Origin: Marivita cryptomonadis
Lineage (GTDB): Bacteria > Pseudomonadota > Alphaproteobacteria > Rhodobacterales > Rhodobacteraceae
Length of the DNA: 32,000 bases
Direction: 5' to 3'
NCBI RefSeq assembly: GCF_002115725.1
Contig: NZ_JFKD01000024.1
Span: 1-32,000 of the forward strand
The translations under genes and the position numbers were made by a program. This document shows, piece after piece, positions 3,448 to 18,004 of the stretch. The notes beneath the pieces are model-generated. The model worked only from the letters and a program-made list of their open reading frames with translations, had not been told where the DNA came from and ran no database searches. Position 1 is the stretch's first letter, and the number at the start of each line of letters is the position of its first letter.

Positions 3448-4029
3448 TTACTGGTCAATCACTTTCAGCTGAAAAAATCTTTGGTCAATAAAAGTCTCAA
3501 TGGAATAGGTGTTTAGGAAATGAGCGCTCGCTTCCAGAGGGCGCGTGAGAACCTTTTCAGTCAGCGCCACGATGCCACTAATCAAGATGCCCGGTGCCAT
3601 CCATAGCAACGGATAAAGTGTGAAGCTATCCGCCCAGAAATTCAGGTAGAGCATAGGCCCAACAAGAAATGGCAAGCCAATGGCGAAGAGATAGCGCAGC
3701 GGCTTTATTTTCAGCGCTATCGCATCGGCAAGTTTGTTGTGGTCATCATACACTTGGTTTTCCCAAGCGAGGTATTCGTCCTCCAATTGCCCGCGAAGGT
3801 AATGGCCGCAACGGCAATAGTCGCGGGTCAGATACTCCGCTTCACCACAGGACGCGCAGACCAACGCATTTCCGTTTATGCTCTTCGGGCGGGAGGGGTC
3901 AGGCTGCTTTGCCGCTTCCTTGAGATCGAGCCCATGTTCGTCGAGGAAAAGGTCAAGCTTCTCAGATAATGAGACTTTCCGTGGCCTTAGGACGTGAACA
4001 TTAGCGGGTAAATCAGTGTTAGACATCAT
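3448..4029 (-). CDS. Hypothetical zinc-ribbon membrane protein (193 aa)
   Basis: Track ORF. CASCGEAEYLTRDYCRCGH gives a CxxC...CxC zinc-ribbon pattern. Two hydrophobic helices follow (LRYLFAIGLPFLVGPMLYLNFW, LYPLLWMAPGILISGIVALT). Its TAA stop (3450..3448) directly abuts the methyltransferase ATG, and its ATG overlaps the upstream XRE stop (ATGA at 4026..4029). Confidence 0.6.
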   Translation of the reverse strand: MMSNTDLPANVHVLRPRKVSLSEKLDLFLDEHGLDLKEAAKQPDPSRPKSINGNALVCASCGEAEYLTRDYCRCGHYLRGQLEDEYLAWENQVYDDHNKLADAIALKIKPLRYLFAIGLPFLVGPMLYLNFWADSFTLYPLLWMAPGILISGIVALTEKVLTRPLEASAHFLNTYSIETFIDQRFFQLKVIDQ

Positions 4030-4460
4030 GCCACCAACCCCAAAATGCTGTCTATGCGTTGTGTATTGGGGGCGCTTTCGGTGCTGCTAAAGGCATCGGA
4101 ACCGAGAAATTCAGCAAAGAGAAAATCAATGGCGTCCCATTTCTTTTCTGGTGTCACGCTCAAACCGCGTTCACCAATACGATGCTCAACCGCGAGGCCA
4201 ATCTTGCGGTAGGCCTGCGTGACCTCTTCGTGTCGCCTGCTCTTACCGCTTTCTGTATCGCCTTCCAGTATCCAGAGCGGGTCAACATCGAACTCTTGGA
4301 ATATCTTCAGGAGCAGCGAGCCCGTCAGGTCCCTTTGGCCTCGTTCGTAGTATTGATAAGCGCTACGACTGATCTCGAGTCGCTGCGCCATCTCCTCCTG
4401 AGAGAGGTGCGCTTGGCTTCTTACCGCCGAAAGACGATTTCCTAGGCCCATAATAGTCAT
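4026..4460 (-). CDS. XRE-family helix-turn-helix transcriptional regulator (possible controller of the RM operon)
   Basis: HTH_3-like LSQEEMAQRLEISRSAYQYYERGQRDLTGSLLLKIF. I prefer the ATG at 4460 (MTIMGLGNRL) because AAGAGAG lies about 7 nt upstream. The track ORF extends to 4493. Confidence 0.8.
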   Translation of the reverse strand: MTIMGLGNRLSAVRSQAHLSQEEMAQRLEISRSAYQYYERGQRDLTGSLLLKIFQEFDVDPLWILEGDTESGKSRRHEEVTQAYRKIGLAVEHRIGERGLSVTPEKKWDAIDFLFAEFLGSDAFSSTESAPNTQRIDSILGLVA

Positions 4461-4497
4461 GAACAACTCTCTTACTAGTTGCGCCGACCACAAAGCT

Positions 4498-4520
4498 GGT
4501 TATATATGCTAAATATAACC
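4498..4520. promoter_or_regulatory. Inverted repeat GGTTATAT-N7-ATATAACC in the divergent XRE / excisionase intergenic region; candidate operator
   Basis: Perfect 8-bp arms read directly from the sequence, about 40 bp upstream of the XRE start. Confidence 0.35.
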
Positions 4521-4635
4521 ACAATTGGTGGCGATGCGGCTGTTTGATCCAACTTCAGCGTACTTTTGTTTGATCCTGAAGGCAAAACAGAATCTTTCGC
4601 TTCGTTTTGTGGTCAACTTGAACATGAGGTGAAGC

Positions 4636-4869
4636 ATGACCAAACTTCTCGAAACACCCAAGGAATTGGCGGACCGAATTGGAATTCCGGTGACAAACGT
4701 CCGATATCTGATCCGTGAAGATATGTTGGACCATATCTTCACCGCACCTGGACAACGCAACCCGAAGATTCCGAGCGGCGCTTGGGAAAAGTATGTGTCT
4801 CAATTCACCGTCAAAGCACAAAAGGGTGCGCCGCGAAGTGCGGGCCAAGAAATGGGGGCTGAGAAATGA
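4636..4869 (+). CDS. Excisionase/AlpA-like small HTH DNA-binding protein
   Basis: 77 aa with TPKELADRIGIPVTNVRYLIREDML, an HTH_17-like pattern. Lies just upstream of an integrase. Confidence 0.6.
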   Translation: MTKLLETPKELADRIGIPVTNVRYLIREDMLDHIFTAPGQRNPKIPSGAWEKYVSQFTVKAQKGAPRSAGQEMGAEK

Positions 4870-5075
4870 CGCGGCACACACCCATCATGGCCAGCGAGAC
4901 GACCGCCGCGCGGTTGCTCGATTTACGGACGAACGAGTTCAAGGCTTTGGTCGATGAAGGTCACTTGCCACCGGGGCATGAAATTGCGCCCGGTGTTGTT
5001 CGTTGGGATACTGAGGTTCTGAAACGAATTTCAGCAGGGGATGTGACAGAGCTATGGGATCAAATTCAGTGGTAG
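4866..5075 (+). CDS. Second small excisionase-like / hypothetical protein
   Basis: 69 aa with TAARLLDLRTNEFKALVDEGHLPP...RWD. ATGA overlap with the preceding gene, and its 3' end overlaps the integrase start. Confidence 0.5.
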   Translation: MTRHTPIMASETTAARLLDLRTNEFKALVDEGHLPPGHEIAPGVVRWDTEVLKRISAGDVTELWDQIQW

Positions 5076-6088
5076 GCCGACGCAAGAAATACCTTTGGCG
5101 GCATCCGTCTGGCCGTTGGTATGTGCGCAAGAGCGTCAACGGGAAGATGATTTATCTTGGACGTATCACTGCTGAAGAGGGCACGGCTGAATTCGACCGC
5201 CAATACTGGGAGATTTTAAGTGGCAAAAAGGCTAATGTGAAAACGTCATGGACTGCGCTCATCGGCGCAATGCGAGAAACAGATAAGTGGGCCGGGTTTT
5301 CCCCCCGTTACCGACGTGACCTTGATAATGCCTTCGAGTATCTGACAGAAAAAATCGGTCACATGGATGTGTCTCGGCTGACCGAAGCCGATATTTACGA
5401 GGCGATGGACCAAAATCGCCATCGGGTCAGGTTTGCCAATTACCTTCCCACAGCGATCAGCATGTTATGCAAGTTGGCGATCCGAAAGCGTTGGCGCGAC
5501 AACAATCCAGCAACCGAAATAGAACAGCTCAAAGTTCCAGAAGGTCGCAAGAAGCCACACCTGCCGTGGACCGATTGGGCTGTCGAGAAGATGCGGGAAG
5601 AGGGCGCGCCTTTGCCCCGCCTGATTTTTGAGATTGGTGTGGGGAGCGTGCAGCGCCCCGGTGACTGGGTGGATTTTCAATGGGGCGACTATGACGGCGA
5701 TACCCTCAAGCTGCGCCAGAATAAGACAGATACGGTCCTTTCACTGCCCTGCACGATTGCACTCAAGGCGGCACTCGATAGTGCGAAAGCTGATCTTGGG
5801 TTTGCGCCCCATCCATCGCGCCACATCCTGACGCGGGCTGATGGTTCCAAAATGGACTATCACGCGATGGCGCGTGTGATGGTGCGTGACCGTAAGCGAT
5901 TGGGCCTTATGGCCCATGACCAACACGCCTTGCGGTATCGCGGCGTGATGGAATTGGCGTGGGCGGGCTGCACTGACGATGAAATCGCCAGCTATAGCGG
6001 CCACACATCCAAAGAGATGATCATCAAATATGCAGGGGAGGCTCGGCAAATCATGCGTGCGAGACAGGCGGTAGCAAAGCGCAAATGA
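5054..6088 (+). CDS. int: Tyrosine-type site-specific integrase (element A)
   Basis: 344 aa. Catalytic pattern visible: VQRPGD (Arg), HALRYRG (HxxR), SGHTSKEMIIKYAG (His...Tyr). Ends 86 nt before the tRNA-Cys 3' fragment. Confidence 0.85.
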   Translation: MGSNSVVGRRKKYLWRHPSGRWYVRKSVNGKMIYLGRITAEEGTAEFDRQYWEILSGKKANVKTSWTALIGAMRETDKWAGFSPRYRRDLDNAFEYLTEKIGHMDVSRLTEADIYEAMDQNRHRVRFANYLPTAISMLCKLAIRKRWRDNNPATEIEQLKVPEGRKKPHLPWTDWAVEKMREEGAPLPRLIFEIGVGSVQRPGDWVDFQWGDYDGDTLKLRQNKTDTVLSLPCTIALKAALDSAKADLGFAPHPSRHILTRADGSKMDYHAMARVMVRDRKRLGLMAHDQHALRYRGVMELAWAGCTDDEIASYSGHTSKEMIIKYAGEARQIMRARQAVAKRK

Positions 6089-6174
6089 CCCCGAACAGAA
6101 CAGGCACAGAACGTGAAACTGATACCAGAGGTGATACCCAATGAGCAGAGAAATTCGTAACCCATTGATTTTAT

Positions 6175-6218
6175 TGGAGGCGAGTACCGGAATCGAACCG
6201 GTGTACACGGATTTGCAA
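6175..6218 (-). repeat. Displaced 3' half of tRNA-Cys (att direct repeat, distal copy)
   Basis: TGGAGGCGAGTACCGGAATCGAACCGGTGTACACGGATTTGCAA matches 15653..15696 at 42 of 44 positions. Both mismatches fall in the T-loop. Identity stops at the anticodon loop, so this is not a complete tRNA. Confidence 0.85.
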
Positions 6219-6379: not shown

Positions 6380-6400
6380 TTACTTCAAAGTTTGAAGTAA
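6380..6400. repeat. Island palindrome copy 1: TTACTTCAAAGTTTGAAGTAA (centre G)
   Basis: Read directly. Followed by GGCGAGCTTC then ATG at 6411, which opens only a 2-codon ORF. Confidence 0.9.
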
Positions 6401-6812
6401 GGCGAGCTTCATGCGATGATTGTGTGGGGAAGTGCCAGTTGAGAAAAAATGCTGCTTGTGGCTGGTGCATTAAACTTAAGTGCTTGTGTCTGAGAGCTGA
6501 CACACAGCTGTGTCGCTGCTACAGGTAACACTGAACGTGAACGTGCACAGCGGCAGCTGTCGGCTATGCGTGAGGCTGCGAAGCGGTACGAACGCTTTCA
6601 ACATATCTTCAAAGCCTGCAATGCAAGGATTAATGTCGGCTGTATGGCGGCCAAAATTGACAATAACGTAGTAATATTGCTTGTCTTCACCTGCTAAGGT
6701 TGTCAATTTGCCTCTCAAACTCGCTGAAATGGTGGATCGAATGCAAGGTGACTTACCGGTAGCATATTAATCGATCTGTAACAGTGAATAAAATTTAGGC
6801 GCGAAGGGTTAA

Positions 6813-8027
6813 ATGCAAATGCGGTGTGTTTTACATATTGGACTTGAGAAAACTGGCACCACTTACATTCAAAATTCATTGTATGAGAATGCATCAGAAC
6901 TTTATGCTGATGGAGTTTATTTGCCGGAGCGCTTAGGCATTTCGAACAATTGGAAAGTGCCGTCTTACTTTAAAAGCGGTTATGAGGGCTATAATTTAAA
7001 AAAAATCGGCGTTGAGTCGAATGAAGAAAAAAAAGAATATTTCAAAGATTTTTTTGATGACTTTATGTATGAAGTTAAAAATGCGCGAAACTGTGATAAT
7101 TTTCTTATAACTTCAGAACATTTCCACAGTAGCCTGCGCACTCAGATTGAGATAGATGCGTTGAAATCGTTTCTTGACCAATTCTTTTCGGATTATTTGG
7201 TTATTTGCTATTTTAGGGAGCAATCTGCACTGGCAAAATCTCTGTATAGCACACATTTGAAAAGTGGAGCAACGAACACTTTCGACAGCTTCTTAGAAAC
7301 CGTTGTGCCAGAAAATTACTATTACAATTTTTTGCAGATTGCAAAGCAATGGGCGCAAGCGTTTGGGGCAGACAACTGCTGCTTTCGTGTATATGATCAC
7401 TCTGCCTTTATTGGTAAAGATATTTTTGCTGATTTTCTGCACGCTATTGGCGTAGCTAGCTTTAAGTCTATAACTCCAATTCAGGCGCGAGTTAATCATT
7501 CTTTATCGCCAATGCAGTGCATACTGCTTCGTAAATTAAACGAAATTATTCCACATTGGAATGACAAGAGGGGAATTTCTGAAGTAAACAAAAATTTAAA
7601 GGAGCAATTACTGAATTTGGATTTTGCGAAAAAGGCGCATTTGGATTTGTTTGATACAAAGCCCGTTTATCAAAAATTTGAAAAAATAAATACAGAATTT
7701 GAGCAAAAATATTTACCTGACGCCAGGCTGCCTCTGCTTGAGAGGGCTATTACACAGCCCGAAACGAAATATGCAAGTGGCGAAGTTGTTTCAATGTTGT
7801 TGGAAATTGAGGAAATGTTTTTGCTCGAAGTGAAAAAGCACGAACGTGTAAAGGTTGAAGAGCGCCCAGCAGCACTAAAAAAAATAATTGATGTACTAGA
7901 CTACAAAGTTCATAAGTGGATATCTGAAACAAGTTTAGCGCCGGCTGCAACTAGAAAGAAGTTTCAGCCAATTACAGAACGGCGGCGGGCAAAATTGATG
8001 CGAAAATATAATAGTATAGATTTCTAA
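6813..8027 (+). CDS. Sulfotransferase-fold P-loop protein (putative), 404 aa
   Basis: N-terminal LHIGLEKTGTTYIQ resembles the PAPS 5'-phosphosulfate-binding loop. FLITSEHF and ICYFREQSALAKSLYS resemble the 3'-phosphate-binding region. This is the most AT-rich gene in the window. Confidence 0.5.
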   Translation: MQMRCVLHIGLEKTGTTYIQNSLYENASELYADGVYLPERLGISNNWKVPSYFKSGYEGYNLKKIGVESNEEKKEYFKDFFDDFMYEVKNARNCDNFLITSEHFHSSLRTQIEIDALKSFLDQFFSDYLVICYFREQSALAKSLYSTHLKSGATNTFDSFLETVVPENYYYNFLQIAKQWAQAFGADNCCFRVYDHSAFIGKDIFADFLHAIGVASFKSITPIQARVNHSLSPMQCILLRKLNEIIPHWNDKRGISEVNKNLKEQLLNLDFAKKAHLDLFDTKPVYQKFEKINTEFEQKYLPDARLPLLERAITQPETKYASGEVVSMLLEIEEMFLLEVKKHERVKVEERPAALKKIIDVLDYKVHKWISETSLAPAATRKKFQPITERRRAKLMRKYNSIDF

Positions 8028-8224
8028 GCCATCACTGAAATTAATGATTGCTGCGATTGAGGCTTCAACGCTTTCAATAGTTTGGCTCAGTGTCAATTTT
8101 GGATTTATAATTATTTTTGTATTTCTCTTATGTATCAAGGTGTAATACACCCAACTCATGGATATATTTGCTAAGCGGCTGTCGCGCAGCCTTAAGCTGG
8201 TCGGCGTGAAAACTTGCATAGCTT

Positions 8225-8253
8225 CTCGTTACTTCAAAGTTTGAAGTAACGAG
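8225..8253. repeat. Island palindrome copy 2, extended: CTCGTTACTTCAAAGTTTGAAGTAACGAG (core 8229..8249, centre G)
   Basis: 29-nt perfect palindrome around a single central base. Lies between convergent genes, 9 nt after the stop of the TGT-like gene. Confidence 0.9.
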
Positions 8254-8261
8254 CAGTTGCG

Positions 8262-9542
8262 TCAATTAAAAGCTTGCTCGATTTGTAGCAAACCTTCTGC
8301 AATTTCGAAGGGTATGCGACTTTGATCTCCTAGTTTTGGGTCAAACACCAAGTCACATGCGTCAGTGAAGGTTTTGTGGTAAATGTACTGATTGTGATTT
8401 GCCAGAAGCTGCTCGCTAAAGTTATCCAAATATTCCTGCGCCATTACATCCTTTTCAACCATCATCTCCTCTATACTCACCCGCTGTAAGGCAGGAGAGT
8501 TGCTGTCTGGCAAAAGGTATGTGCGAGATGTTGCATTGACGTATTTGGGGTTTTGGACCAGTCCCTCAGTTTTTATTCGCCATGTTGCAATTGCGTCTTC
8601 CAGTGTGGGCATTTGGCAAAGTTGACGGAATTCTCCAGCAGTTCGGAATGGGCTGCTACTGTCAAAACTTATTTTCAAACCAGCATTGCCAGTTACTCGG
8701 CGCAGTTCGTTTTGGATTGCGGTAAAATATACAGCTTCTTCCGCTGAGCTGGTGCCCAGTATATGTATCCATTCTGTTTCGTCCAAAAGCTTGTCATTCA
8801 GCAACTTTGTTAGCCAGTATAGCACACTGGTTAAGTCTTTCTTTGTATCGCTGCCCAATGCCCACCCACGTGTAAAGGTGAATGGCGTTACTGCTTTGTA
8901 CCAAGCGTTGCCAGTATCATCGCCAATGTCTTGTAAGACGTTCAGATACTTGGCACGTGCTCCTGTGTCTTTGCCTGAATTTTTCTCAAAATACCGAAGA
9001 TTGTGAACGCTTAAATCAATGAGTTGATCCACACTCAATTTTCTGAGTGCTGATTTTCGGTCTCTGGTAGCCCAAATCGGCATGTCCAATGTCATTGCAT
9101 AATCGCAATATACATCGAGCCAACGTAAATATTGCGCTTTCAAATCCGAGTTTTGCATCCATTTTCTGCAAAACTCATCATTTTTGAGATTTTGCCAATT
9201 TTTCGAGCCTGCAAATTTGAACTTGGCTATCTGGTATCCGCCGCTGTCTCCAATCACCGTTGTGCGTTTGGGATCACGTGTGCTTACAATATCGGCGGTA
9301 GAGAGGTGGGAACTGCTAAACAAGCCTGCGCTGTATAGGGCGTATTTGCTGTGCCAAAGGGCACTCTGGTCGTTGAAGTAATTCAAATCGTTGAGTGTAA
9401 GGTTGCCTGGTAGTTTTCCACCCCTTACTGCTTGACTAGGCATGCAAGCCAGCTGTGCATATTTTTTCTGCAAGCTGGGTAAATATACGGCATATTTGTC
9501 ATATTTTTCGGAAAAATTCACACCGGGCAAATTGCTGTTCAT
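8262..9542 (-). CDS. tRNA-guanine transglycosylase (TGT)/DpdA-superfamily base-exchange enzyme homologue, 426 aa
   Basis: VIGDSGGYQIAKF (DSGGYQ at 9231..9248) matches the TGT catalytic Asp / stacking Tyr motif. MTLDMP resembles the FDEC Asp, RGWALGS resembles GYAVGGL, and HILGTSS...ISFDSSSPFRTAGEF resembles YLMGVG...DMFDCVLPTRSGRNG. No CxCxxC...H zinc motif is evident. Confidence 0.7.
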   Translation of the reverse strand: MNSNLPGVNFSEKYDKYAVYLPSLQKKYAQLACMPSQAVRGGKLPGNLTLNDLNYFNDQSALWHSKYALYSAGLFSSSHLSTADIVSTRDPKRTTVIGDSGGYQIAKFKFAGSKNWQNLKNDEFCRKWMQNSDLKAQYLRWLDVYCDYAMTLDMPIWATRDRKSALRKLSVDQLIDLSVHNLRYFEKNSGKDTGARAKYLNVLQDIGDDTGNAWYKAVTPFTFTRGWALGSDTKKDLTSVLYWLTKLLNDKLLDETEWIHILGTSSAEEAVYFTAIQNELRRVTGNAGLKISFDSSSPFRTAGEFRQLCQMPTLEDAIATWRIKTEGLVQNPKYVNATSRTYLLPDSNSPALQRVSIEEMMVEKDVMAQEYLDNFSEQLLANHNQYIYHKTFTDACDLVFDPKLGDQSRIPFEIAEGLLQIEQAFN

Positions 9543-11230
9543 TCGCTGGCCTCCTGTGTTTTGAGCGTGTTTGAAAACACAGTTTCATCACGTTTGCCAT
9601 TGGTGTCAGCTGCTGGAATAAAGTGCTGATAGTCAGCGATGGACGTGCTGTAGTTGATGTTCATCACATGTGAATTTGCTTGAATTGTAATTTTATCCGT
9701 ATCCAATACGATGTTGGGCAAACTACTGAACAACAGAACGAAGTCTTTTGCTGCGCATTGGAAGGAAGCGCTGGCGTCTTGTTTGAAGCTTGGAGTGATA
9801 CCAGCAAGCGCTACTGAATAGCTGAGTTGGTACTGCTGAGCTTTTTCATCCCACCAAGCATGCAACACAAGCTCGTCTTCAGTCAGCATCACCATTACTG
9901 TGCGATTTTCCGGTTTGTTGTGTTTACCGGCAATTTTGTTAATCCAAGCCGTTAAACACACGGCATCAAACGTTGCTAGCCACTGCTTGCTGACTTGCAT
10001 TGTCCAATCGTACTCAATCTGACTGGGATTAGAGACGAATGGTTGTTGGATAGCGCTTTGATCCGACAGCTTTGTTACATCGTAAAAATGAAGACGTCGG
10101 TTTTTGGAACTGGCAGTGTCGGTGAGCGTGATGTTGTAGTCGGCAACACGTGTGCTGGTGTCGGGTGTATAGCCTGCACTTGGCTCGGCTGTGTAAAGCG
10201 TGAGTTTGTTTTTTCCCAGCAACTCAGCTTCGATCCACTGCCTGTCTTTTCCAAACAAAGTGGCTTCGGTGGCAAAATCGAAGTCTTGTTTGCGTTTGAT
10301 TTGGGATACAACACTGACAGTTGTGGGACTTTTGCTGACAAGGATGTCGCTGTGCTCAGGCCGTGTGCGTAATGTGGTGTTCACTTTGATCTTTTCAGGC
10401 TTTTGTCCCTGCTTTTTGCGTACAATAGTGCTCTCTGCAAAATATCGTTTGCGATGTTTTTCCAGCTTTTTGGGTAAGGCGTGTGGCTCCAAAGCCTCTG
10501 CGATCAATCGCAGATTGGGTGCCACTGAAGTTCGATCAATATTGGTGCAGTAATCTAAAGCCAGCGCAAGAGCAGCTTCGCTGTAGTCAGTGCCAACAAT
10601 GTCGATGGTGCCATGTTCTGTGCGGCGGCCTAGCATGACAATTAGCCCGTTGTCGTTTGTGACTGCATTGGGAAAATTATTGAGTGTAGCCAATGGCTGT
10701 GAGTTCGATGCGGCTTCAATGCGTTGCGTGCTAAGAGCTTGCGCAACTGGCGTTTTCTTCGCAGGTGCAGGCGCAGTTTCACTGTCTTCGTTGGTATCCA
10801 CTTCGTCGGCATACAGCTCTTTTTCGCCTCGTAAGCCACCAAGCCCACCACTGGCATGAATAAAATTGAGTAAGTGAGCGCGAGGATCATTTTGGTAAGC
10901 TTGAAGATTATCAGAATACTGCTCATCAATCCGTTGCATGCTTTTTGCCCAATTACTGATGGCGCTGGCACGTGTGCTTGCATCAACATTCCAAACCAAA
11001 CGTAAGAGGGCGAAAAAATTTGGCTGATTACTTTGTGGTTTACGGACTGTAATGCCGGCGTCTTTGTATTTAGTGGCCAAATATTCCGGATCTTCATGCG
11101 CCTCTCGCCACCACAAATACGCATCAACAATGCCTTCGTATAGTTGCTGTCTGCTGTTCTTATACGTTTCGGTTTGCGTTTCAGCCGCTGCCTTCAGTGC
11201 GTCCAGTTTCTGATCCAATGCGTGCGTCAT
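9539..11230 (-). CDS. Hypothetical protein, 563 aa, translationally coupled partner of the TGT-like gene
   Basis: Long track ORF. GGAG lies 7 nt before its ATG. Its TGA stop overlaps the ATG of the next gene (ATGA at 9539..9542). I recognise no Walker, ParB or DGQHR motif. Confidence 0.75.
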   Translation of the reverse strand: MTHALDQKLDALKAAAETQTETYKNSRQQLYEGIVDAYLWWREAHEDPEYLATKYKDAGITVRKPQSNQPNFFALLRLVWNVDASTRASAISNWAKSMQRIDEQYSDNLQAYQNDPRAHLLNFIHASGGLGGLRGEKELYADEVDTNEDSETAPAPAKKTPVAQALSTQRIEAASNSQPLATLNNFPNAVTNDNGLIVMLGRRTEHGTIDIVGTDYSEAALALALDYCTNIDRTSVAPNLRLIAEALEPHALPKKLEKHRKRYFAESTIVRKKQGQKPEKIKVNTTLRTRPEHSDILVSKSPTTVSVVSQIKRKQDFDFATEATLFGKDRQWIEAELLGKNKLTLYTAEPSAGYTPDTSTRVADYNITLTDTASSKNRRLHFYDVTKLSDQSAIQQPFVSNPSQIEYDWTMQVSKQWLATFDAVCLTAWINKIAGKHNKPENRTVMVMLTEDELVLHAWWDEKAQQYQLSYSVALAGITPSFKQDASASFQCAAKDFVLLFSSLPNIVLDTDKITIQANSHVMNINYSTSIADYQHFIPAADTNGKRDETVFSNTLKTQEASE

Positions 11231-11240
11231 CCCAAGCTCC

Positions 11241-11261
11241 TTACTTCAAACTTTGAAGTAA
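11241..11261. repeat. Island palindrome copy 3: TTACTTCAAACTTTGAAGTAA (centre C, opposite polarity to copies 1 and 2)
   Basis: On the minus strand it reads TTACTTCAAAGTTTGAAGTAA-GGAG-CTTGGG-ATG. It therefore abuts the Shine-Dalgarno sequence of the 563-aa gene. Confidence 0.9.
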
Positions 11262-11381
11262 CGTGATGCTGTGAAAAATTTTCTCAATGATAAATATTGT
11301 GCGAACGCCCATTTAACAGGCAAGATCAGCGAGCGGCAGTTGACGCAGCACCAGTACTTATGGATTTGGCAGGGGAGTTTG

Positions 11382-11537
11382 ATGCGCATACAAGAGATTG
11401 AACGCAAACCAAAAAAACGCAAAGCGGGCAAAGCCAGCGATAAGACGGATTGGGAACGGAATTTGACAAAGCTGCGCAGTAAAAAAAGACAGCTGAAACC
11501 ACAAAGCCCAGTTAAGCCGGTGAGCTTGGTGCGCTGA
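11382..11537 (+). CDS. Possible small, very basic protein (51 aa)
   Basis: GGGGAG lies 5 nt before the ATG. Sequence is MRIQEIERKPKKRKAGKASDKTDWERNLTKLRSKKRQLKPQ. The track ORF begins at 11271. Support is weak. Confidence 0.3.
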   Translation: MRIQEIERKPKKRKAGKASDKTDWERNLTKLRSKKRQLKPQSPVKPVSLVR

Positions 11538-11646
11538 AGATGTAATATCTTGCAAAATTACATGGTTTGAGTGACGCGGAACAAACACCGCTGTAAAATA
11601 ACGCTCCAAGCAATTGCACACATAGTCGAAACAACGAGAACGAAGA

Positions 11647-12225
11647 TCAGTAATCCACCAGCTCTACAGCGCTGCGCAGCTTGTTCTCATTCAAATCAAT
11701 ATAGCGCATGGTGGTGTTGAGATGACTATGACGGGCAAGCGCTTGGATCACACGTGCGTTGATGCCTTTATCCGCAAGCTCCGTCACAAACTGACGACGC
11801 CCACTGTGCGAACTCGCACCAGTGATACCAGCAATCTTGTACAAGTGCTGAAACAAGTTCACCATCGTCTGCGCTGTAAATCCCCCACCCTGCGCACTGA
11901 AGATCAATGGCGAGCTGGGTTGGGCGATGCGCTGCGGATAGGCGTCTGCATATTTTTGCAACGCCTTGCGCAATTTGCCGTTCACAAGCGCCGTGCTGCT
12001 GGCGTTCCCTTTGGTCTGTTGGGCGGACATGTAAATGGTATCCAGCACATTGCCTGCCGCATCAAAAACATCGCCAACACGCAGCGCAGCAATCTCGCAG
12101 GCGCGTAACCCTGCATAAAAACTCAACGCCACTGCTGTGTGATTTCGAACTGCATGACGCTGTGAATTGATCACACTGTGCAAACGACGACGCTCAACTT
12201 GCGTCAACAAACGGGCTTGCTTCAT
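11647..12225 (-). CDS. Short catalytic-domain-only tyrosine recombinase, FimB/FimE-like in size and layout (~192 aa)
   Basis: LTQVERRRL...VRNHTAVALSFYAGLRACEIAALRVGD (Arg I), SSHSGRRQF (HxxR), LARHSHLNTTMRYID (His...Tyr). GGAGAGA lies 6 nt before the ATG at 12225. The track ORF starts at 12291. Confidence 0.75.
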   Translation of the reverse strand: MKQARLLTQVERRRLHSVINSQRHAVRNHTAVALSFYAGLRACEIAALRVGDVFDAAGNVLDTIYMSAQQTKGNASSTALVNGKLRKALQKYADAYPQRIAQPSSPLIFSAQGGGFTAQTMVNLFQHLYKIAGITGASSHSGRRQFVTELADKGINARVIQALARHSHLNTTMRYIDLNENKLRSAVELVDY

Positions 12226-12378
12226 TTGCTGTCTCTCCAAAAAGATGTGGCTGTGTACACGCACAGCATAAATCCTAATCTTTGGTGGCACGATGGTTTT
12301 TGTAAAATCTGCTAAAGCACTGACGTCATTGATTTTATGAGCAAATGATTAAGGAATATGTATTGTATAATCTTTCGC

Positions 12379-12681
12379 TCAACACACCTCTGCAATGTGA
12401 TGCTGTGTTCGCAAATACTGCATCAGCTGCGCTTCAACGTCTGCCAATACCTGCTGCTGTTGGGTTGTGAGCTGAGGGCGGAAATGACAACGGCGTAATG
12501 CACGCACGCACTGTATGGCGGTTAGTATGGTGAAATCTTTGTTTTGATACTTGCGCAGCGAATACGTACTTCTGCTTCTGTTCAAAAACTGCTCGCTGAA
12601 CTCTTCACCGCTTAAAACCAAATCCACCGCTTTAAGCTGAGTGTATACCTGCTGCATGAGGGGGGCTGTGTTTGCGTCCAT
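12379..12681 (-). CDS. Hypothetical protein (~100 aa)
   Basis: Track ORF. AGGAG lies 6 nt before the internal ATG at 12681 (MDANTAPLMQQ). Confidence 0.5.
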   Translation of the reverse strand: MDANTAPLMQQVYTQLKAVDLVLSGEEFSEQFLNRSRSTYSLRKYQNKDFTILTAIQCVRALRRCHFRPQLTTQQQQVLADVEAQLMQYLRTQHHIAEVC

Positions 12682-12720
12682 GTCGTCTCCTGTTCGTTCT
12701 TCCACCGTGTATTCATCTTG

Positions 12721-12744
12721 TCAGTGTCAGTGTCAGTGTCAGTG
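12721..12744. repeat. Hexanucleotide tandem repeat (TCAGTG)x4
   Basis: Four perfect units read directly, about 40 nt upstream of the 12681 start on the minus strand. Confidence 0.9.
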
Positions 12745-12897
12745 GTTGTTTGGGTGTTGGTGTTAATTGGGTATAGTAAAGATTGGCGTTGACTGCGCAG
12801 CCCAACACCAATCTCCCACACCAAATTGTCCTGCGCCTTTACCTTGCTGTATGCCAAGCACTTCAGCAATCTGCCTAAATTGAGAATTGTCGATGCC

Positions 12898-13506
12898 TTA
12901 GCGTTGCTGCCTTGCACGTGCCCGTTGTTGGAGTTGTTCAATTTGCCAGTCCAATGCCTGTAATGCGCCGTTGAGTTGAGAACTTGAGATTTTGTTGCAT
13001 ATGCGTGTGACGAGTTTTGTGTTGTGAATATCTGCCTGTAAATTTGGTGTTAAGGGCTGAAATGACGTCAGCTCTGCGATGGTGTCGGTTTGCTGCTGCT
13101 GCACACTTTTGGATGTGTATGCTGCTGCATTGCTGGCATCACTAACCGGTGTGATCCAATTGTATTTTGTCCCCGCAGTGCGCACATGAATGTCGCTCCA
13201 AACTGCATTGAGAATGGCACAAAGCGGTTTGGTGGCGATGGGCGCTGTACACATGAAATGCAGGTGAATGTTTTGACCACATGCGCCGAATTCCGTAAAG
13301 CACCAGCGCTGTATTCCCATGCCTTTGCGTGCTGCATGTCCAAACAGCATCACGTCCATCCTGTGCCAAAATGTTTTGAAGATGGGCAGAGCTTGATTGG
13401 CGTGAACAAAACGTCCGTTGTCAAACTTTAAGACACCAACGATCTTGTAGTGTGGCTTCTCAAGCTCTGCGATCCAACCACCATGTGTGCGCTTGTTCCA
13501 ATTCAT
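12898..13506 (-). CDS. HUH-endonuclease-like (Rep / inovirus Gp2-like) protein, 202 aa
   Basis: Motifs appear in Rep order: WCFTEF, then NIHLHFM (HUH), then AAAYTSKS (YxxK). Motif spacing is atypical, so the call is tentative. Confidence 0.4.
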   Translation of the reverse strand: MNWNKRTHGGWIAELEKPHYKIVGVLKFDNGRFVHANQALPIFKTFWHRMDVMLFGHAARKGMGIQRWCFTEFGACGQNIHLHFMCTAPIATKPLCAILNAVWSDIHVRTAGTKYNWITPVSDASNAAAYTSKSVQQQQTDTIAELTSFQPLTPNLQADIHNTKLVTRICNKISSSQLNGALQALDWQIEQLQQRARARQQR

Positions 13507-13626
13507 AACTGCGTTTCCTTCACAGTTATTTATCCTTTGTAAGCAAAGGCAGGTTATTTTCCGGCTCGTTCCTGTTTTGTACCGGCGTTAGTTTTGCAAT
13601 GACCGTCACACAAGGAGCATTTTTCC

Positions 13627-14052
13627 ATGTCACATCTTGCCAAACTAAACCTAAAATCCGTTCAACGCAGTGTGCAAAAGGATCCTGCCATACAACGCAG
13701 GGAAAAGCTTTGTTTGGCGTTGGAACGGCAGCTGCTGGTAGTGGAAGCTGCGCTGACGGGTTCACAATACACAGTTACAGAAAAACGCTGGCGTGAGAAC
13801 GAGTTGGGCGAACGAGTGCTTGTGGATGTACAGCGAACGGTAAGGCGCTGGTTTTTTGAGCAAGATGGTGGGTGGTACGTGCAATGCAAATATGGCAGCC
13901 GTGTTCTGAACATCTACGGCAAAAGCAACGCTGTATTCGTCAACGAGCTTGCTGATGTGCGTCCTGTGCTGGAAGCCTTTTATGCAGCAGCTGCTGCTGG
14001 TGAATTGGACAAGGCGATTGCTGAATTGGGCCGTAAAAAGGGCAACAGCTAA
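13627..14052 (+). CDS. Hypothetical protein, 141 aa
   Basis: Track ORF with AAGGAG 9 nt upstream. Divergent from the Rep-like gene. Its TAA stop lies inside palindrome copy 4. Confidence 0.6.
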   Translation: MSHLAKLNLKSVQRSVQKDPAIQRREKLCLALERQLLVVEAALTGSQYTVTEKRWRENELGERVLVDVQRTVRRWFFEQDGGWYVQCKYGSRVLNIYGKSNAVFVNELADVRPVLEAFYAAAAAGELDKAIAELGRKKGNS

Positions 14053-14070
14053 CTTCAAACTTTGAAGTAA
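14050..14070. repeat. Island palindrome copy 4: TAACTTCAAACTTTGAAGTAA (centre C, one arm mismatch that creates the TAA stop)
   Basis: Read directly. Lies between convergent genes. Confidence 0.85.
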
Positions 14071-14078
14071 GGCGCTGA

Positions 14079-14108
14079 GCAAGGCTTGGCGTCTTGCCTG
14101 TTTATTTG
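14079..14108 (+). terminator. Weak hairpin (GCAAG...CTTGC) followed by CTGTTTATTT
   Basis: Short stem plus a T-rich tail after the 141-aa gene. Confidence 0.3.
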
Positions 14109-15517
14109 AGTATTTTCAACAAGCTGTGCTGGTCTATCAAGTCAGCGTTCATTGCCTCCAATGCCAACATCCGAATATCAGCTGTGGGTTCATAACCGTC
14201 CGCATGTACGCCCAACGCTGCCAAAAAGGCTGACTGGTCTATTTTGCCGGATTTCAACATCTCAAAAGCAAGTGCAGCAGGATCGGTGGAGGTGTTGGGC
14301 TTGGCCTTTTTTCCATCTCTGCCGCTGTGTTGATCTGCGTTGATGAGAGGACTGTATTTACTGTAGTGCCGGTCCAGCATCAAAGTGCTGTTTCCCATTT
14401 GCTTGCTCAGCGCATGTGTGCTCATGCCACGTTCCAAGTCTTGCGTCGCATAAAAATGCCGCCAGCTGTACAGTGTTCGATCCAACCCATCTGCGCCAGT
14501 CTTCAAATTCAACTCTTGCAGTAATGTGTTAAAAGCACGATTAACGTTGGCAACTCGGATCACTTCGCCCAAGCGTGTCGTCCAAATTGGCTCATTGCTT
14601 TTTGCAGTAACAAGCTGATCGAAAGTTGTGTGAGTAAGGCGAGGGTTGAGCTGGCTTTGGCGGTCCAAAAAATCAACGACGCGATCACGTGCAATGATTT
14701 TGCGTTTTTTGGTTTTGCCATCCACGTTGATAGCCAAATAGCGCTCACCATCTTTTGTGTGCCATTCGATGTGTTGCCAACATAGCGCTAACGCTTCTTT
14801 GCCGTGTCGTATGCCAGTGTTCGCTAAAAACAGAACATAGTTGCGCAGCGTTTCTCGTGTTGCCGCTGCTTTAGCGTCTTTGGTTTTTTGGTGAAAGCTG
14901 CGCAGCGCTGTGTAAATAGTTTTGTATTCGTCCAGCGTGTAGCTACCCCTGCCTTGCGTCTCCACGCCTTTGTTGAGCAGGGTAGGGCGCAAAGATTTGT
15001 TCAGCCAGCCACGCAGCTCTGCTTCATCAAAAACGCGATTAAGCGCAGCGTTGTGGTTATTGATGGTGCTTTGCGCAAGCTTGCGTCCTGCTTGCCGTTC
15101 TCGCCACGTGTCGAACTGCATCAGCGCTGCCAAATCAATTTTGGCAACATCGGTTTTTTCGAAGTAGGGGATCAAGTACCTTTGCAAAGCAGAAATGTAA
15201 TCTTTGTAAGCAATTTTGCCGGTGCCAGCATCCAGTTCGTCTTGCATGCGCTTTATGGCGAATTCAGCGACATGCTTAAACTTGCGAGTATTTGCGGGCA
15301 GCTTGTTTTTAAGGCGAGCCTGTGTTTCATAATACAGCTCTAAGGCTATCTCTTTCGCCTCCTCTACATCGTCTGTTCCTGTGCTTTTTACGTCACGTTT
15401 GCTGTTGGGCAAAGTTATGCGAGCGTACCAATTGTTGCTGCCTTTGCGCTTGTCCAAACGCAGCTTTTTGTGCACCTGCACAGTTTTTGCACCGTAGCTC
15501 ATCGCATCAAAATCCAA
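14102..15517 (-). CDS. int: Tyrosine-type site-specific integrase of island B, 471 aa
   Basis: FLANTGIRHGKEAL (Arg), YSWRHFYATQDL, MGNSTLMLDRHYSKY (His...Tyr). Adjacent to intact tRNA-Cys. The start is either TTG 15517 or ATG 15502. Confidence 0.85.
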   Translation of the reverse strand: MDFDAMSYGAKTVQVHKKLRLDKRKGSNNWYARITLPNSKRDVKSTGTDDVEEAKEIALELYYETQARLKNKLPANTRKFKHVAEFAIKRMQDELDAGTGKIAYKDYISALQRYLIPYFEKTDVAKIDLAALMQFDTWRERQAGRKLAQSTINNHNAALNRVFDEAELRGWLNKSLRPTLLNKGVETQGRGSYTLDEYKTIYTALRSFHQKTKDAKAAATRETLRNYVLFLANTGIRHGKEALALCWQHIEWHTKDGERYLAINVDGKTKKRKIIARDRVVDFLDRQSQLNPRLTHTTFDQLVTAKSNEPIWTTRLGEVIRVANVNRAFNTLLQELNLKTGADGLDRTLYSWRHFYATQDLERGMSTHALSKQMGNSTLMLDRHYSKYSPLINADQHSGRDGKKAKPNTSTDPAALAFEMLKSGKIDQSAFLAALGVHADGYEPTADIRMLALEAMNADLIDQHSLLKILK

Positions 15518-15613
15518 GCTTTTGATTTTATGGAACTATAGCGCAAAAGGCCCAGCGTCGCACGTCAAAACTGTGTACGGGTTGTGTACAAGACCTGCTG
15601 GACTATATGTTGT

Positions 15614-15642
15614 GGTAATTTGCACAAAATACGCAAATTACC
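15614..15642 (-). terminator. Hairpin GGTAATTTGC-N9-GCAAATTACC immediately 3' of tRNA-Cys, flanked by ACTATATGT direct repeats
   Basis: 10-bp perfect stem read directly, with no U-tract. Could act as a tRNA 3' processing or termination structure, or as an att-arm protein-binding site. Confidence 0.3.
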
Positions 15643-15652
15643 ACTATATGTA

Positions 15653-15726
15653 TGGAGGCGAGTACCGGATTTGAACCGGTGTACACGGATTTGCAATCCG
15701 CTGCGTCACCACTCCGCCAACTCGCC
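15653..15726 (-). tRNA. tRNA-Cys (anticodon GCA), 74 nt with encoded CCA
   Basis: Folded by hand. Acceptor GGCGAGU/ACUCGCC, anticodon stem GCGGA/UCCGU, loop UUGCAAA, T arm ACCGG-UUCAAAU-CCGGU, discriminator U, then CCA. Confidence 0.92.
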
Positions 15727-15738
15727 AGAGTGGAGGTC

Positions 15739-15767
15739 TGATTAGGCGGTCGCGGGGGGCGCGTCAA
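15739..15767 (-). promoter_or_regulatory. Sigma70-like promoter for tRNA-Cys: TTGACG-N17-TAATCA
   Basis: Hexamers and the 17-nt spacer read directly. The -10 element ends 12 nt before the tRNA 5' end. Confidence 0.5.
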
Positions 15768-15888
15768 GCGGATATCGGATGTGCAATTCAACACAGCATG
15801 TGGCAGTATTTCGCGCGATCTGCGCATTGCTGAAATTGGTCAGCTGTGGCAGAACGCCAGCAGCGAACTGAACGGATGAGTTTAGCCC

Positions 15889-16542
15889 ATGACAGACTTT
15901 GCCGCCCGCCGGACCATGATGGTCGACACGCAGGTACGTCCCTCCGATGTGACCAAATTTCCGATCATCGACGCTATGCTGTCGGTCCCACGGGAACTTT
16001 TTGTGCCGCGCGAACAGGCAGAGGCGGCTTACATCAGCGAGAACGTGCCGATTGCGCCCGGCCGGGTCGTGCTTGAACCGCGCACTCTGGGAAAGCTCTT
16101 GGATGCGCTCAACATTGAGAGCGATGAGCTCGTGCTCGATATCGGGGCGGGGTACGGCTATTCCTCGGCACTGGTCGCGCGGATGGCCGAAGCGGTGATC
16201 GCGGTCGAAGAGGATGAAGCCTTGGCCAGCGAAGCGCAGGTCATCCTTTCGGAGCAGGGTGCCGATAATGTCGTTTTGCATACCGGGCTGCTCACCGAAG
16301 GGGCCGCACAACATGGTCCGTATGACGCGATGCTGATCGAAGGCGGAGTCGAGCAGGTGCCCGACGCGCTGCTCGAACAGCTCAAGGATGGTGGTCGGAT
16401 CGGCTGTGTCTTCATGGAAGGTGCACTGGGCGTTGTCAGAATCGGCTATAAGATTGATGGTAACGTCACGTGGCGTTTTGCGTTCAACGCATCCGCGCCG
16501 GTTCTACTGGGCTTTGCGAAAAAAGCTGCGTTCACATTGTAA
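15889..16542 (+). CDS. pcm: Protein-L-isoaspartate O-methyltransferase family protein
   Basis: [18 protein letters not shown] motif. A pcm-like gene followed by tolC is the usual alphaproteobacterial arrangement. Confidence 0.85.
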
Positions 16543-16594
16543 TTGCGCCGTTTAAAACAAATAAATACAGACAGATCAACAAGGGGCAGCAGGT

Positions 16595-18004
16595 ATGGTG
16601 AAGCGGTTGAAACTGACGGGTCTGGCTGTCGCTCTAGGTCTTGTGATTGCGGCTCCAATGGCGCGGGCCGAAACTCTGGCCGATGCGATGATCGGGGCCT
16701 ACAACACCAGCGGTCTTCTTGAACAAAACCGCGCTGTCTTGCGTGCTGCCGATGAAGATGTCGCGCAGGCTGTTTCATCTTTGCGCCCGGTGATCTCTTG
16801 GTCTGCGGATGCCACCCGCCAATTCGGCACCACCCGCAGCGCATCGACCAGCAATTTTATCGTACCGACGGTGTCGAACACCGTGTCGGCAAGCCTGATC
16901 GCGGAACTGACGCTGATCGACAACGGCCAAAACAAACTCGCCATCGAAACCGCCAAGGAAGCCGTGCTGGCCACACGCCAGCAGCTTGTCTCGATCGAGC
17001 AGCAGGTTCTGTTGTCGGCGGTTGAGGCACATCTCGAGGTGCGCCGCGCGATTGAAAACGTCGCCCTGCGGGAAAACAACGTGCGCCTGATCACCCAAGA
17101 ACTGCGCGCCGCTCAAGAGCGGTTCGAAGTGGGGGAAGTCACCCGCACCGACACCTCTTTGGCCGAGGCGCGCCTTGCAGCCGCTCGCAGCCAGTTGGCC
17201 GCCGCACAAGGCGCGTTGACCGTGGCCCGAGAGCAATACCTCGCCATCGTTGGCCGCACGCCCGGTGCGTTGCAGCCGCTGCGCAGCCTGCCGCAATTCC
17301 CGACATCCGTGGACGAGGCCAAGGCGATTGCTGTGCGCAGCCATCCGCAGGTCAAATCCGTTCAGCACCAGGTTGCCGCCTCGGAACTCAACATCCTGCG
17401 CGCCGAAGCGGCGATGAAACCGACAGTGCGCTTGTCTGGTCGGCTGACCGTGACTGAAGGTCTCGACTCCGACCGGTTCACGCGTGGCGGATCGATCGGG
17501 CTCGAAGCTGGCGGTCCCATCTATCAGGGCGGGCGTCTGACTTCGCTGGTTCGGCAATCCATGGCCAACCGCGATTCGGCGCGCGGCCAGTTGCATCAGG
17601 TGATTGATCAGGTGTCGCAGAATGTCGGCAACGCCTATGCGCAGTTCCGCATTGCTCAGGCCAGCCTCGAATCGTCAGACCGTCAGGTGCGCGCGGCCAC
17701 CGTCGCATTTCGTGGTGTTCGCGAGGAAGCAGCGCTTGGCGCACGCACCACGCTGGACGTGCTGAACGCCGAACAGGAACTGCTGAATGCGCGGTCCGCC
17801 CGAATTTCTGCGCAAGTGGACGAAGGGATTGCGGCCTATCGCGTGTTGTCCACGCTGGGACGTCTCACCGCGACCGATTTGAAGTTGAACGTGCAGCAAT
17901 ACGACCCCGTAAGCTATTACAATCTGGTCAAAGATGGCCCGATTCAGAAAAGCCAGCAGGGCCAGCAGCTTGACCGTGTTCTCAAGGCCCTAGGAAAAAA
18001 CTAA
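16595..18004 (+). CDS. tolC: TolC-family outer membrane efflux protein
   Basis: Signal peptide LVIAAPMARAETL. Repeated coiled/beta halves with a typical TolC N-terminus (LADAMIGAYNTSGLLEQNRA). Confidence 0.9.
   Translation: MVKRLKLTGLAVALGLVIAAPMARAETLADAMIGAYNTSGLLEQNRAVLRAADEDVAQAVSSLRPVISWSADATRQFGTTRSASTSNFIVPTVSNTVSASLIAELTLIDNGQNKLAIETAKEAVLATRQQLVSIEQQVLLSAVEAHLEVRRAIENVALRENNVRLITQELRAAQERFEVGEVTRTDTSLAEARLAAARSQLAAAQGALTVAREQYLAIVGRTPGALQPLRSLPQFPTSVDEAKAIAVRSHPQVKSVQHQVAASELNILRAEAAMKPTVRLSGRLTVTEGLDSDRFTRGGSIGLEAGGPIYQGGRLTSLVRQSMANRDSARGQLHQVIDQVSQNVGNAYAQFRIAQASLESSDRQVRAATVAFRGVREEAALGARTTLDVLNAEQELLNARSARISAQVDEGIAAYRVLSTLGRLTATDLKLNVQQYDPVSYYNLVKDGPIQKSQQGQQLDRVLKALGKN

Follow-up and report, generated by a model that had tools for sequence, protein, structure and literature searches.

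A 21-base palindrome specific to a family of mosaic integrative islands lies at the joints between their modules

Why should a 21-base palindrome, TTACTTCAAA[G/C]TTTGAAGTAA, occur four times in a 32-kb stretch of Marivita cryptomonadis DNA (hereafter the window, by which we mean the whole stretch that was analyzed), and always within a single island? The island measures 9.5 kb, is integrated at a tRNA-Cys gene and has a G+C content of 38-50%, versus about 60% for the genome; proteins of the window match OSQ56652-56655 of M. cryptomonadis exactly. The original prediction, made from the sequence alone, had offered an operator, a cassette boundary or recombination site, or an RNA hairpin as possible roles. 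The second of these best fits our comparison of the window with related loci (numbered L005, L012 and so on), which suggests that, in the manner of pdif or attC sites, the palindrome may join the modules of an integrative island as a family-specific site of the recombination type. We place the probability of this reading at roughly 45%.

The copies are real. A search of the window with the pattern TTACTTCAAASTTTGAAGTAA, allowing up to 3 mismatches, returned four matches and the same search of 100 shuffled sequences returned none; permitting 5 mismatches revealed no further site. Hence the predicted count of four copies with none elsewhere in the 32 kb was borne out even with mismatches allowed, and the 22 kb of flanking host DNA in the window contain no copy. 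One sequence had been given for all four, which is exact for three; copy 4 is inexact, its first arm reading TAAC (TAACTTC...), with one mismatch. The central bases were found as described, G in copies 1 and 2 and C in copies 3 and 4. All four copies are non-coding, in keeping with their reported placement between genes or at gene ends, copy 4 lying over the DUF6641 stop codon. Beyond the 21-mer, the window copies have just 4-13 nucleotides (nt) of flank in common; copies 1 and 3 are perfect inverse complements over 27 nt, and the symmetry of copy 2 reaches 29 nt (CTCG...CGAG). As had been proposed, the palindromes partition the island, which extends from the attL repeat to the tRNA-Cys gene (Table 1). 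When the island is drawn as a circle, the four copies cut it into exactly four modules: a sulfotransferase-like cargo gene; a cargo pair encoding proteins of 563 and 426 amino acids (aa); a core comprising DUF6641, an HUH Rep-like protein, DUF6626, a small Xer-like recombinase and a small basic protein; and a large integrase with att.

The motif is specific to an island family and is not a generic repeat. In a scan of reference genomes, one per species (n = 185,579), there were three single matches, all in AT-rich unrelated organisms, where about one is expected by chance, and a scan of viral contigs (IMG/VR) yielded one match. A generic repetitive extragenic palindrome (REP) or uptake sequence was rejected on these chance-level results, which also dispose of the concern, raised with the original prediction, that the motif might be a REP-like element of unrelated genomes. 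The same 21-mer, at 20-21 of 21 bases, does recur in related loci (L009, L012, L013, L015, L016, L094, L107 and L108), where the proteins flanking it are merely 47-60% identical to those of the window; the site is far better conserved than its surroundings. Homologues of the small recombinase number more than 1,700. Among the 120 homologues listed, identity is 70-79% (97% in one case), the sources are mostly marine metagenomes, and the few with a species name belong to the Rhodobacterales. The neighborhood is kept as well, with DUF6641, Rep-like, DUF6626, recombinase and small basic protein genes followed by variable cargo and a large integrase. Our literature search returned nothing relevant on the motif, DUF6641 or descriptions of such islands, and the islands are a previously undescribed family, even if the site proves to be regulatory.

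Other islands of the family carry sites of the same design. A second allele with the same geometry, TTACATCG-N5-CGATGTAA, has nearly perfect arms and is found in L020-L028 (21 copies) and L091-L093 (three per locus in L091 and L092), reaching up to 5 copies per island in L028. A third type, CAAACTA-A-AAACTTT-A-TAGTTTG, forms an inverted pair around the core of L053. The first and second types differ at 1 of 7 arm positions and in the centre, while the first and third share the centre and differ in the arms. An unbiased scan for palindromes recurring within a locus brought up these families, one further palindrome, in L087, and a handful of chance pairs. Any one island has sites of a single type; in L013 and L108, both with the type of the window, there is in addition a decayed second-type site, situated at the end of a 205-nt duplication that consists of flank, site and the first 90 nt of the 563-aa gene.

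The sites lie at module joints. They are found 5-12 nt after the stop codons of the recombinase (L024-L028 and L091), the integrase (L005, L094 and L091) and, in the window, the 426-aa gene, and they overlap the integrase stop codon in L107 and L053. Other sites precede cargo starts by 10-28 nt, invariably so for the 563-aa gene and likewise for three cassettes of L028, precede the Rep-like gene by 60-80 nt (L020, L026 and L091), or lie around the Rep-DUF6626-recombinase block. Particular positions of the window recur in relatives: the arrangement at copy 1, a site followed after about 170-200 nt by att, is found in L012 and L026; the position of copy 3 is occupied in L013, L015, L094, L108, L020 and L028; and copy 4, which stands between convergent gene ends, has integrase-proximal counterparts in L005, L094, L107, L091 and L053. 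The integrases that accompany the conserved core belong to at least four unrelated families, which target the neighborhoods of tRNA-Cys, rpsI, secA or clpS, and in L091 the DUF6641 module occupies another place and has another orientation. The varied integrases, the shifted DUF6641 module and the positions of the sites therefore indicate that sites mark joints between exchangeable modules, and the related islands are mosaics with joints falling at sites. An inversion between copies 1 and 4, considered as the event separating the architectures of the window and L005, was rejected: the two integrases are unrelated (26% identical), so the difference represents module replacement. The cargo of the relatives is mostly defence, including Type I restriction-modification (L091), Type ISP (L090), NotI-like (L094) and Alw26I-like (L107) systems and the 563/426-aa pair, which is kept by six or more island lineages and in all of them immediately follows a site and has defence genes as neighbors.

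The palindrome thus probably marks where modules are swapped, and its own layout is best read as a 7-bp arm, a 7-bp centre and a 7-bp arm, which is the core geometry of tyrosine recombinase sites. Under a mechanism of this type, a circular DNA bearing a compatible site would be inserted, excised or inverted through a crossover in the site centre; every module acquired would end up with a site at either end, and the sites within an island would stay alike. Integron attC sites and the pdif modules found on Acinetobacter plasmids follow this logic. In L012, two sites enclose a Sel1-repeat gene; their outer half-arms are perfect and their inner half-arms degenerate, and to the right of the second site the sequence agrees with the right flank of the single sites in L009 and L107, as would be expected had a crossover in the centre of an existing site inserted the gene there. 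At the position of copy 3, L011, L012 and L027 have the left half-site, TTGCTTCAAAA, alone, and homology stops at the palindrome centre; when L020, L022 and L024 are compared with L025, 91% homology begins exactly at the site edge. Recombination at the site is an inference from such patterns, as is any choice of enzyme for it. Finally, L028 contains two inversely oriented site pairs with identical 7-nt centres, which is the condition reported for pdif recombination, a reaction that happens between sites with identical spacers (PMC13141974).

Several observations weigh against recombination at the palindrome. Many mosaic breakpoints in the family lie away from any site, and the cargo-less minimal islands L101-L106 encode the recombinase and have no palindrome. 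Some second copies are contained in larger duplications, which homologous recombination could have produced: a stretch of 205 nt is doubled in both L013 and L108, one of 125 nt in L012 and one of about 45 nt in L028. Centres differ within one island (GGAAAAC, GGAAACC and GGAAATC in L028), and a given flank can adjoin either orientation of the centre: the central base is C in L013 and G in L015, the surrounding sequences being 97.6% identical and diverging in a patch of about 25 nt next to the site. Such flipped centres cannot arise by legitimate crossover alone. The polarity of the central base, to which the original prediction had drawn attention, proved independent of gene direction, the 563-aa gene having G upstream in the window and L015 and C upstream in L013, L094 and L108. 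Assemblies break at att, not at sites. The consensus assemblies of 15 contigs of the same island from other samples (5 places shown) share the gene order and site polarity of the window, without any rearrangement or structural variant between copies.

This uniformity bears most directly on the proposal that the FimB-like recombinase flips a phase-variable 3-kb segment for which copies 2 and 3 serve as inverted repeats. The two copies do have opposite centres and bracket the 563/426-aa operon, and the recombinase aligns end-to-end with the FimB/FimE-type invertases of NF007370 (E = 8e-13), though at 48 bits versus a cut-off of 221. Besides the single orientation found in all contigs from other samples, however, the same operon is flanked by directly repeated sites in L013 and L108, its promoter side is unchanged in any way that would switch expression, and the recombinase has a different cognate repeat. 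An invertible switch is therefore very improbable.

For the palindrome, the small recombinase is the enzyme that first suggests itself, but that different repeat complicates the choice. In essentially all relatives, an 11-6-11 inverted repeat with the consensus ATGTTATAGAA-TNNNNA-ATCTATAACAT is located 146-147 nt before the recombinase ATG and is accompanied by a third half-site over an extended -10 box; the repeat stands at the same place in about 60 loci (e.g. L012 5854-5885 and L102 ~1654-1681). In the window, all three half-sites (Table 1) have changed together to GATTA, and on Piscirickettsia plasmids that lack DUF6626, similar repeats precede distant recombinase homologues (36-39% identical). 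As a further count against the palindrome as the recombinase's target, the 11-6-11 repeat is present even in the minimal islands without the 21-mer and its half-sites are unlike the 21-mer; judged from these sequences, it is probably the better candidate for the recombinase's own site. Given this separate repeat, recombination at the 21-mer would require dual specificity, host XerCD or another factor. The site arm ATGTAA/AAGTAA shows a partial likeness to the XerD arm. Islands with the second site type encode one recombinase clade, at least 83% identical among themselves and 72-77% identical to the rest, and none of the Rep-like, DUF6626, DUF6641 and integrase proteins follows site type; even so, the match between recombinase clade and site type is loose, as L031, of the other clade, and L107 carry hybrid arms, which again counts against the palindrome as a recombination site.

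Additional features of the 11-6-11 repeat and of the recombinase family were observed. The central 3-4 nt of the repeat are hypervariable among contigs encoding an identical recombinase (ACT, TAG, AGT and ATG), and its spacers occur as reverse-complement pairs (TATGTA/TACATA, TTACTA/TAGTAA, TACTTA/TAAGTA and TACACA/TGTGTA); of its flanks, the left is variable and the right nearly invariant. Homologues of the small recombinase are also encoded on plasmids of Acinetobacter (156 records) and Legionella (25), and three are present on the P. salmonis plasmid NZ_CP038970.1 (L112), in which a 24-nt palindrome, AATAGGGGGCTATAGCCCCCTATT, occurs four times (25208, 25282, 27281 and 27355) as two pairs around a 2-kb module. 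L087, which encodes a distant relative of the recombinase (29% identical, gene 826-1395), has a perfect 22-bp palindrome, ATAATGCTGATATCAGCATTAT, at 594-615 and 4824-4845.

The palindrome might alternatively be bound by a dimeric, non-recombining protein of the island or its host and act as an operator, roadblock or insulator, like the KorB operators of IncP plasmids. Perfectly conserved arms around an A/T-rich centre that varies and flips are typical of a symmetric dimer site, and the constancy of the contigs agrees with this idea. So does the presence of copies in promoter regions, namely between the DUF6641 and Rep-like genes in L026, before the Rep-like gene in L020 and L091 (at the 60-80 nt mentioned above) and before the 563-aa gene; in L028, the flanking sequences TTGCTT and TAAGCT could be -35 and -10 boxes around the site. 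However, a promoter scan found nothing at the window copies, and copies 2 and 4, together with the post-recombinase copies elsewhere, stand between the 3′ ends of convergent genes, a setting without any promoter for an operator to act on. Among the island proteins no cognate regulator was found, and none tracks site type, the small recombinase doing so loosely. DUF6641 was rejected as a regulator: its AlphaFold2 model (predicted local distance difference test score, 78) has no DNA-binding fold and no fold match in the PDB, and a profile search was empty. An operator would also leave unexplained both the half-site at which homology breaks in the centre and the insertion pattern of L012. We consider it unlikely.

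A role in RNA has to be weighed mainly on the positions and folding of the copies. The palindrome could form a hairpin at the ends of module transcripts, serving as a barrier to 3′ decay, an intercistronic stabilizer or a translational operator beside a Shine-Dalgarno sequence, in which case the ligand could be an RNA-binding protein such as the small basic protein. The proximity of sites to stop codons (5-12 nt) and starts (10-28 nt) is consistent with this, as is the GGAG that directly follows the site at copy 3, L015 and L094; moreover, at both positions where the arm types diverge the opposite arm has a compensating change, and the fold of copy 2 is strong (-23 kcal/mol, z = -5.9). Those of copies 1 and 4 are weak (centroid energies of -6.3 and -4.5 kcal/mol, z = -1.9 and -0.3), and copy 1 lies 413 nt from any gene. 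In addition, the 16 arm positions identical across distant islands exceed what structure needs, the loop base flips relative to the gene, and neither Rfam, where a scan of the window matched the tRNA alone, nor alignment folding lends support. The predicted link of the palindrome to a Shine-Dalgarno sequence and an ATG applies to copy 3, where, on the minus strand, GGAG directly follows the palindrome and the ATG at 11230, the true start of the 563-aa gene, lies 10 nt past it. It fails at copies 1 and 2: the ATG at 6411 opens a two-codon open reading frame (ORF; ATG CGA TGA), and that at 8219 a 94-aa ORF of doubtful status, which runs over the 3′ end of the 404-aa gene and is uncalled in 5/5 related contigs, leaving 11230 as the sole one of the three to open a real gene. 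As had been stated, the copies are not canonical terminators, since none of the four is followed by a U-tract; their stems are AT-rich. An intrinsic terminator role was rejected on the lack of a U-tract, the weak stems and a separate terminator-like hairpin nearby. The latter, at 14067-14097 (+), begins inside copy 4, has 14 pairs followed by a T run and would end the DUF6641 transcript; its presence beside copy 4 is a further argument against an RNA role for the palindrome, which we regard as quite improbable.

The Rep-like protein suggests another possibility, in which the palindromes would be single-stranded DNA hairpin signals for this HUH protein and rolling-circle copying from site to site would release single modules, a situation likened to the hairpin ends used by IS200/IS605 and IS91. 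Every island encodes an HUH protein with a Y-x-x-K motif, sites of the second and third types flank the block containing its gene, and template switching across a hairpin would flip the centre; flips are also seen in the 11-6-11 repeat. Nevertheless, identical sites accompany Rep-like proteins that are just 22-29% identical, minimal islands have the Rep-like gene and no palindrome, a 1-5-nt loop offers little room for nicking, and no conserved cleavage motif exists outside the stem. The likelihood of such a signal appears low, at the lower end of the range covered by the alternatives apart from the invertible switch.

Returning to the palindrome as a recombination-type joint, the coordinates of the island features are collected in Table 1.

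Table 1. Features of the M. cryptomonadis island and selected features of related loci. Positions are those of the window unless a locus is named.
Feature	Position	Strand	Remarks
attL	6175-6218	-	44-nt copy of tRNA-Cys 3′ part, 95% identical to 15653-15696; left end of island
Palindrome copy 1	6380-6400		Centre G; ~160 nt inside attL; 413 nt upstream of 404-aa gene
404-aa sulfotransferase-like protein	6813-8027	+	Cargo module 1
Palindrome copy 2	8229-8249		Centre G; between convergent 3′ ends of 404-aa and 426-aa genes
426-aa protein	8262-9542	-	Second gene of cargo module 2; invariant GDSGGYQ motif
563-aa protein	9539-11230	-	First gene of cargo module 2
Palindrome copy 3	11241-11261		Centre C on + strand; between divergent starts of 563-aa gene (-) and small basic protein gene (+)
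ORF with small basic protein	11271-11537	+	Conserved part ~55 aa, start uncertain; convergent to recombinase
Small Xer/FimB-like tyrosine recombinase, 192 aa	11647-12225	-	Catalytic domain only
Third half-site	12269-12283	-	Over extended -10 box
11-6-11 inverted repeat	12347-12372	-	147 nt upstream of small recombinase ATG
DUF6626 protein, 108 aa	12379-12705	-	Always directly upstream of small recombinase
HUH Rep-like protein, 202 aa	12898-13506	-	HLH motif, then Y-T-S-K; weak PF23343 match
DUF6641 protein, 141 aa	13627-14052	+	Accessory core gene
Palindrome copy 4	14050-14070		Centre C; 3-nt overlap with DUF6641 stop codon; 31 nt past integrase stop codon
Large tyrosine integrase, 471 aa	14102-15517	-	Integration module, together with att
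tRNA-Cys (GCA) with attR	15653-15726	-	Right end of island
563/426 pair in relatives	L013 6256-9236; L028 1451-4471; L094 5083-8066; L108 3730-6710; L020 3109-5562		
Decayed second-type site	L013 10296-10316; L108 7172-7192		TTGCAT(T/G)GGTTTC(C/T)(C/G)ATGTAA
125-nt flank	L005 14089-14213; L009 15803-15928; L012 1010-1137 and 1905-2032; L027 5438-5564; L107 18450-18574		

The proteins of the cargo pair had no match in Pfam, PADLOC or the PDB. Copies 2 and 3 bracket their operon, as the original prediction had it, but the label "TGT-like" (for tRNA-guanine transglycosylase) given to the 426-aa protein was left unconfirmed by Pfam (E up to 10) and by a PDB profile search, and was set aside; we take its GDSGGYQ motif to recall the catalytic-Asp motif of tRNA-guanine transglycosylases and DpdA. 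The 404-aa module was rejected as a mobile one, its homologues being at most 40% identical and residing in chromosomal polysaccharide and ABC-transporter contexts without sites. The 471-aa integrase is 62-65% identical to those of L011, L012 and L026, and other family members have unrelated integrases (22-32%); the Rep-like protein is of two unrelated types across the family. All of the islands encode the small, very basic protein (L012 ~6700-6870, L028 1126-1329 and L102 2488-2898, all on the minus strand), which has the C-terminal motif ...DF(E/D)KN..L(K/R)SK.R.L.P..PVKPV and exists in long forms of 133-136 aa in the minimal islands. The latter (e.g. L102 1-4489) are about 4.4 kb in size, lie next to secA, and contain a 60-aa H-NS-like ORF, the Rep-like, DUF6626 and recombinase genes, the long small basic protein and an integrase, without DUF6641.

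Some sites in relatives have a conserved non-coding flank of about 125 nt on one side (Table 1), in which GCTGAC, CGCTGTA and TTGACGCC are invariant; it shows no conserved RNA structure and no covariation. It is absent from the window, and an extended accessory arm at the window copies was therefore rejected. The contig Ga0306871_1000345 (L012/L014, 18,251 bp) contains 1.6 copies of an 11,506-bp island unit, including att and integrase, and is explained either by units arrayed in tandem at tRNA-Cys or by a concatemer of their circular form. In the window, a second island stands in tandem at the same tRNA-Cys att (1-6174; its counterpart in L096 is at 9907-16773) and has none of the palindromes inside. 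Its genes encode a 344-aa integrase (5054-6088, +), small ORFs (4636-5075), a helix-turn-helix protein (4026-4493, -) and a 193-aa protein (3448-4029, -); in L096, the tandem island encodes a 1150-aa MmeI-family restriction-modification enzyme.

If the sites are recombination joints, they would provide for the self-contained assembly and exchange of defence genes in abundant marine bacteria, and the islands, being integrative and using a far simpler site, would stand alongside integrons and the dif modules of Acinetobacter. Such a site could allow the limits of cargo modules in metagenomes to be drawn automatically and might also serve as a compact tool for recombination. More broadly, and with considerable doubt, we suggest that defence-carrying marine Rhodobacterales islands run a cassette system of their own, with the 21-bp, nearly symmetric site as a universal joint at which integration, replication and defence modules would be taken up, removed and rearranged; its enzyme would be the catalytic-domain-only Xer-like recombinase, acting with dual specificity, or host Xer. 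Were this true, integrons and pdif modules would be joined by a third natural system for shuffling modules, one with a near-loss of site polarity, left to the centre base alone, built in.

How does the site compare with those of known systems? The REP and bacterial interspersed mosaic elements (BIMEs) that are associated with RAYT are likewise palindromes between genes, about 20-35 nt long, that have an HUH enzyme encoded in their vicinity, but they are present in tens to hundreds of copies chromosome-wide, whereas the 21-mer is confined to the island. Invertible switches of the Fim type and shufflons are found in both orientations in populations, unlike the segments in the consensus assemblies of the 15 contigs. 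The lambda-type core site, C-O-C′, is composed of inverted 7-bp arms around a 7-bp overlap (7+7+7 bp), and its layout is that of the 21-mer; the island's own att core, however, lies in the 3′ end of tRNA-Cys, and the same 21-mer accompanies unrelated integrases, so the large integrase is an unlikely partner. Modules in which a recombinase gene adjoins its site are exemplified by xerS-difSL and by Tn4430 TnpI with its internal recombination site. Their layout fits the 11-6-11 repeat with its extra half-site, not the 21-mer, and this likeness suggests that the small recombinase already has a site.

The 21-mer belongs to neither the attC nor the pdif family, since the tests of site length, arm structure and integrase all fail. 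Like attC, it is a palindromic site near the stop of one gene and the start of the next and is homogeneous within an element, and the cassettes of L012 and L028 each carry their own site and flank. Integron attC sites, on the other hand, are imperfect palindromes of 57-141 nt with extrahelical bases; the island sites are perfect 21-mers (TTAC...GTAA) that have no GTTRRRY core and no R″/L″/L′/R′ layout. No IntI was found beside the array, TIGR02249 matching residues 154-200 of the small recombinase alone (29.8 bits versus a cut-off of 265). Integron cassettes also follow attI/Pc in one orientation, whereas island genes point both ways and core genes, too, are bounded by sites. The pdif sites of Acinetobacter plasmids are 28 bp long, with distinct 11-bp XerC and XerD arms and a 6-bp spacer, which results in oriented sites and alternating modules; the island site has 21 bp, identical 7-8-bp arms and a 5-7-bp centre, from which alone it derives its polarity. 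The carriers differ as well, an integrative island here and a Rep_3 plasmid for pdif, whose enzyme is host XerC/XerD. In both cases, short sites bound a conserved backbone and discrete accessory modules, and module content and order vary between related elements; pdif events take place between sites with identical spacers (PMC13141974; PMC6449649), and in the island family L028 has pairs of this kind.

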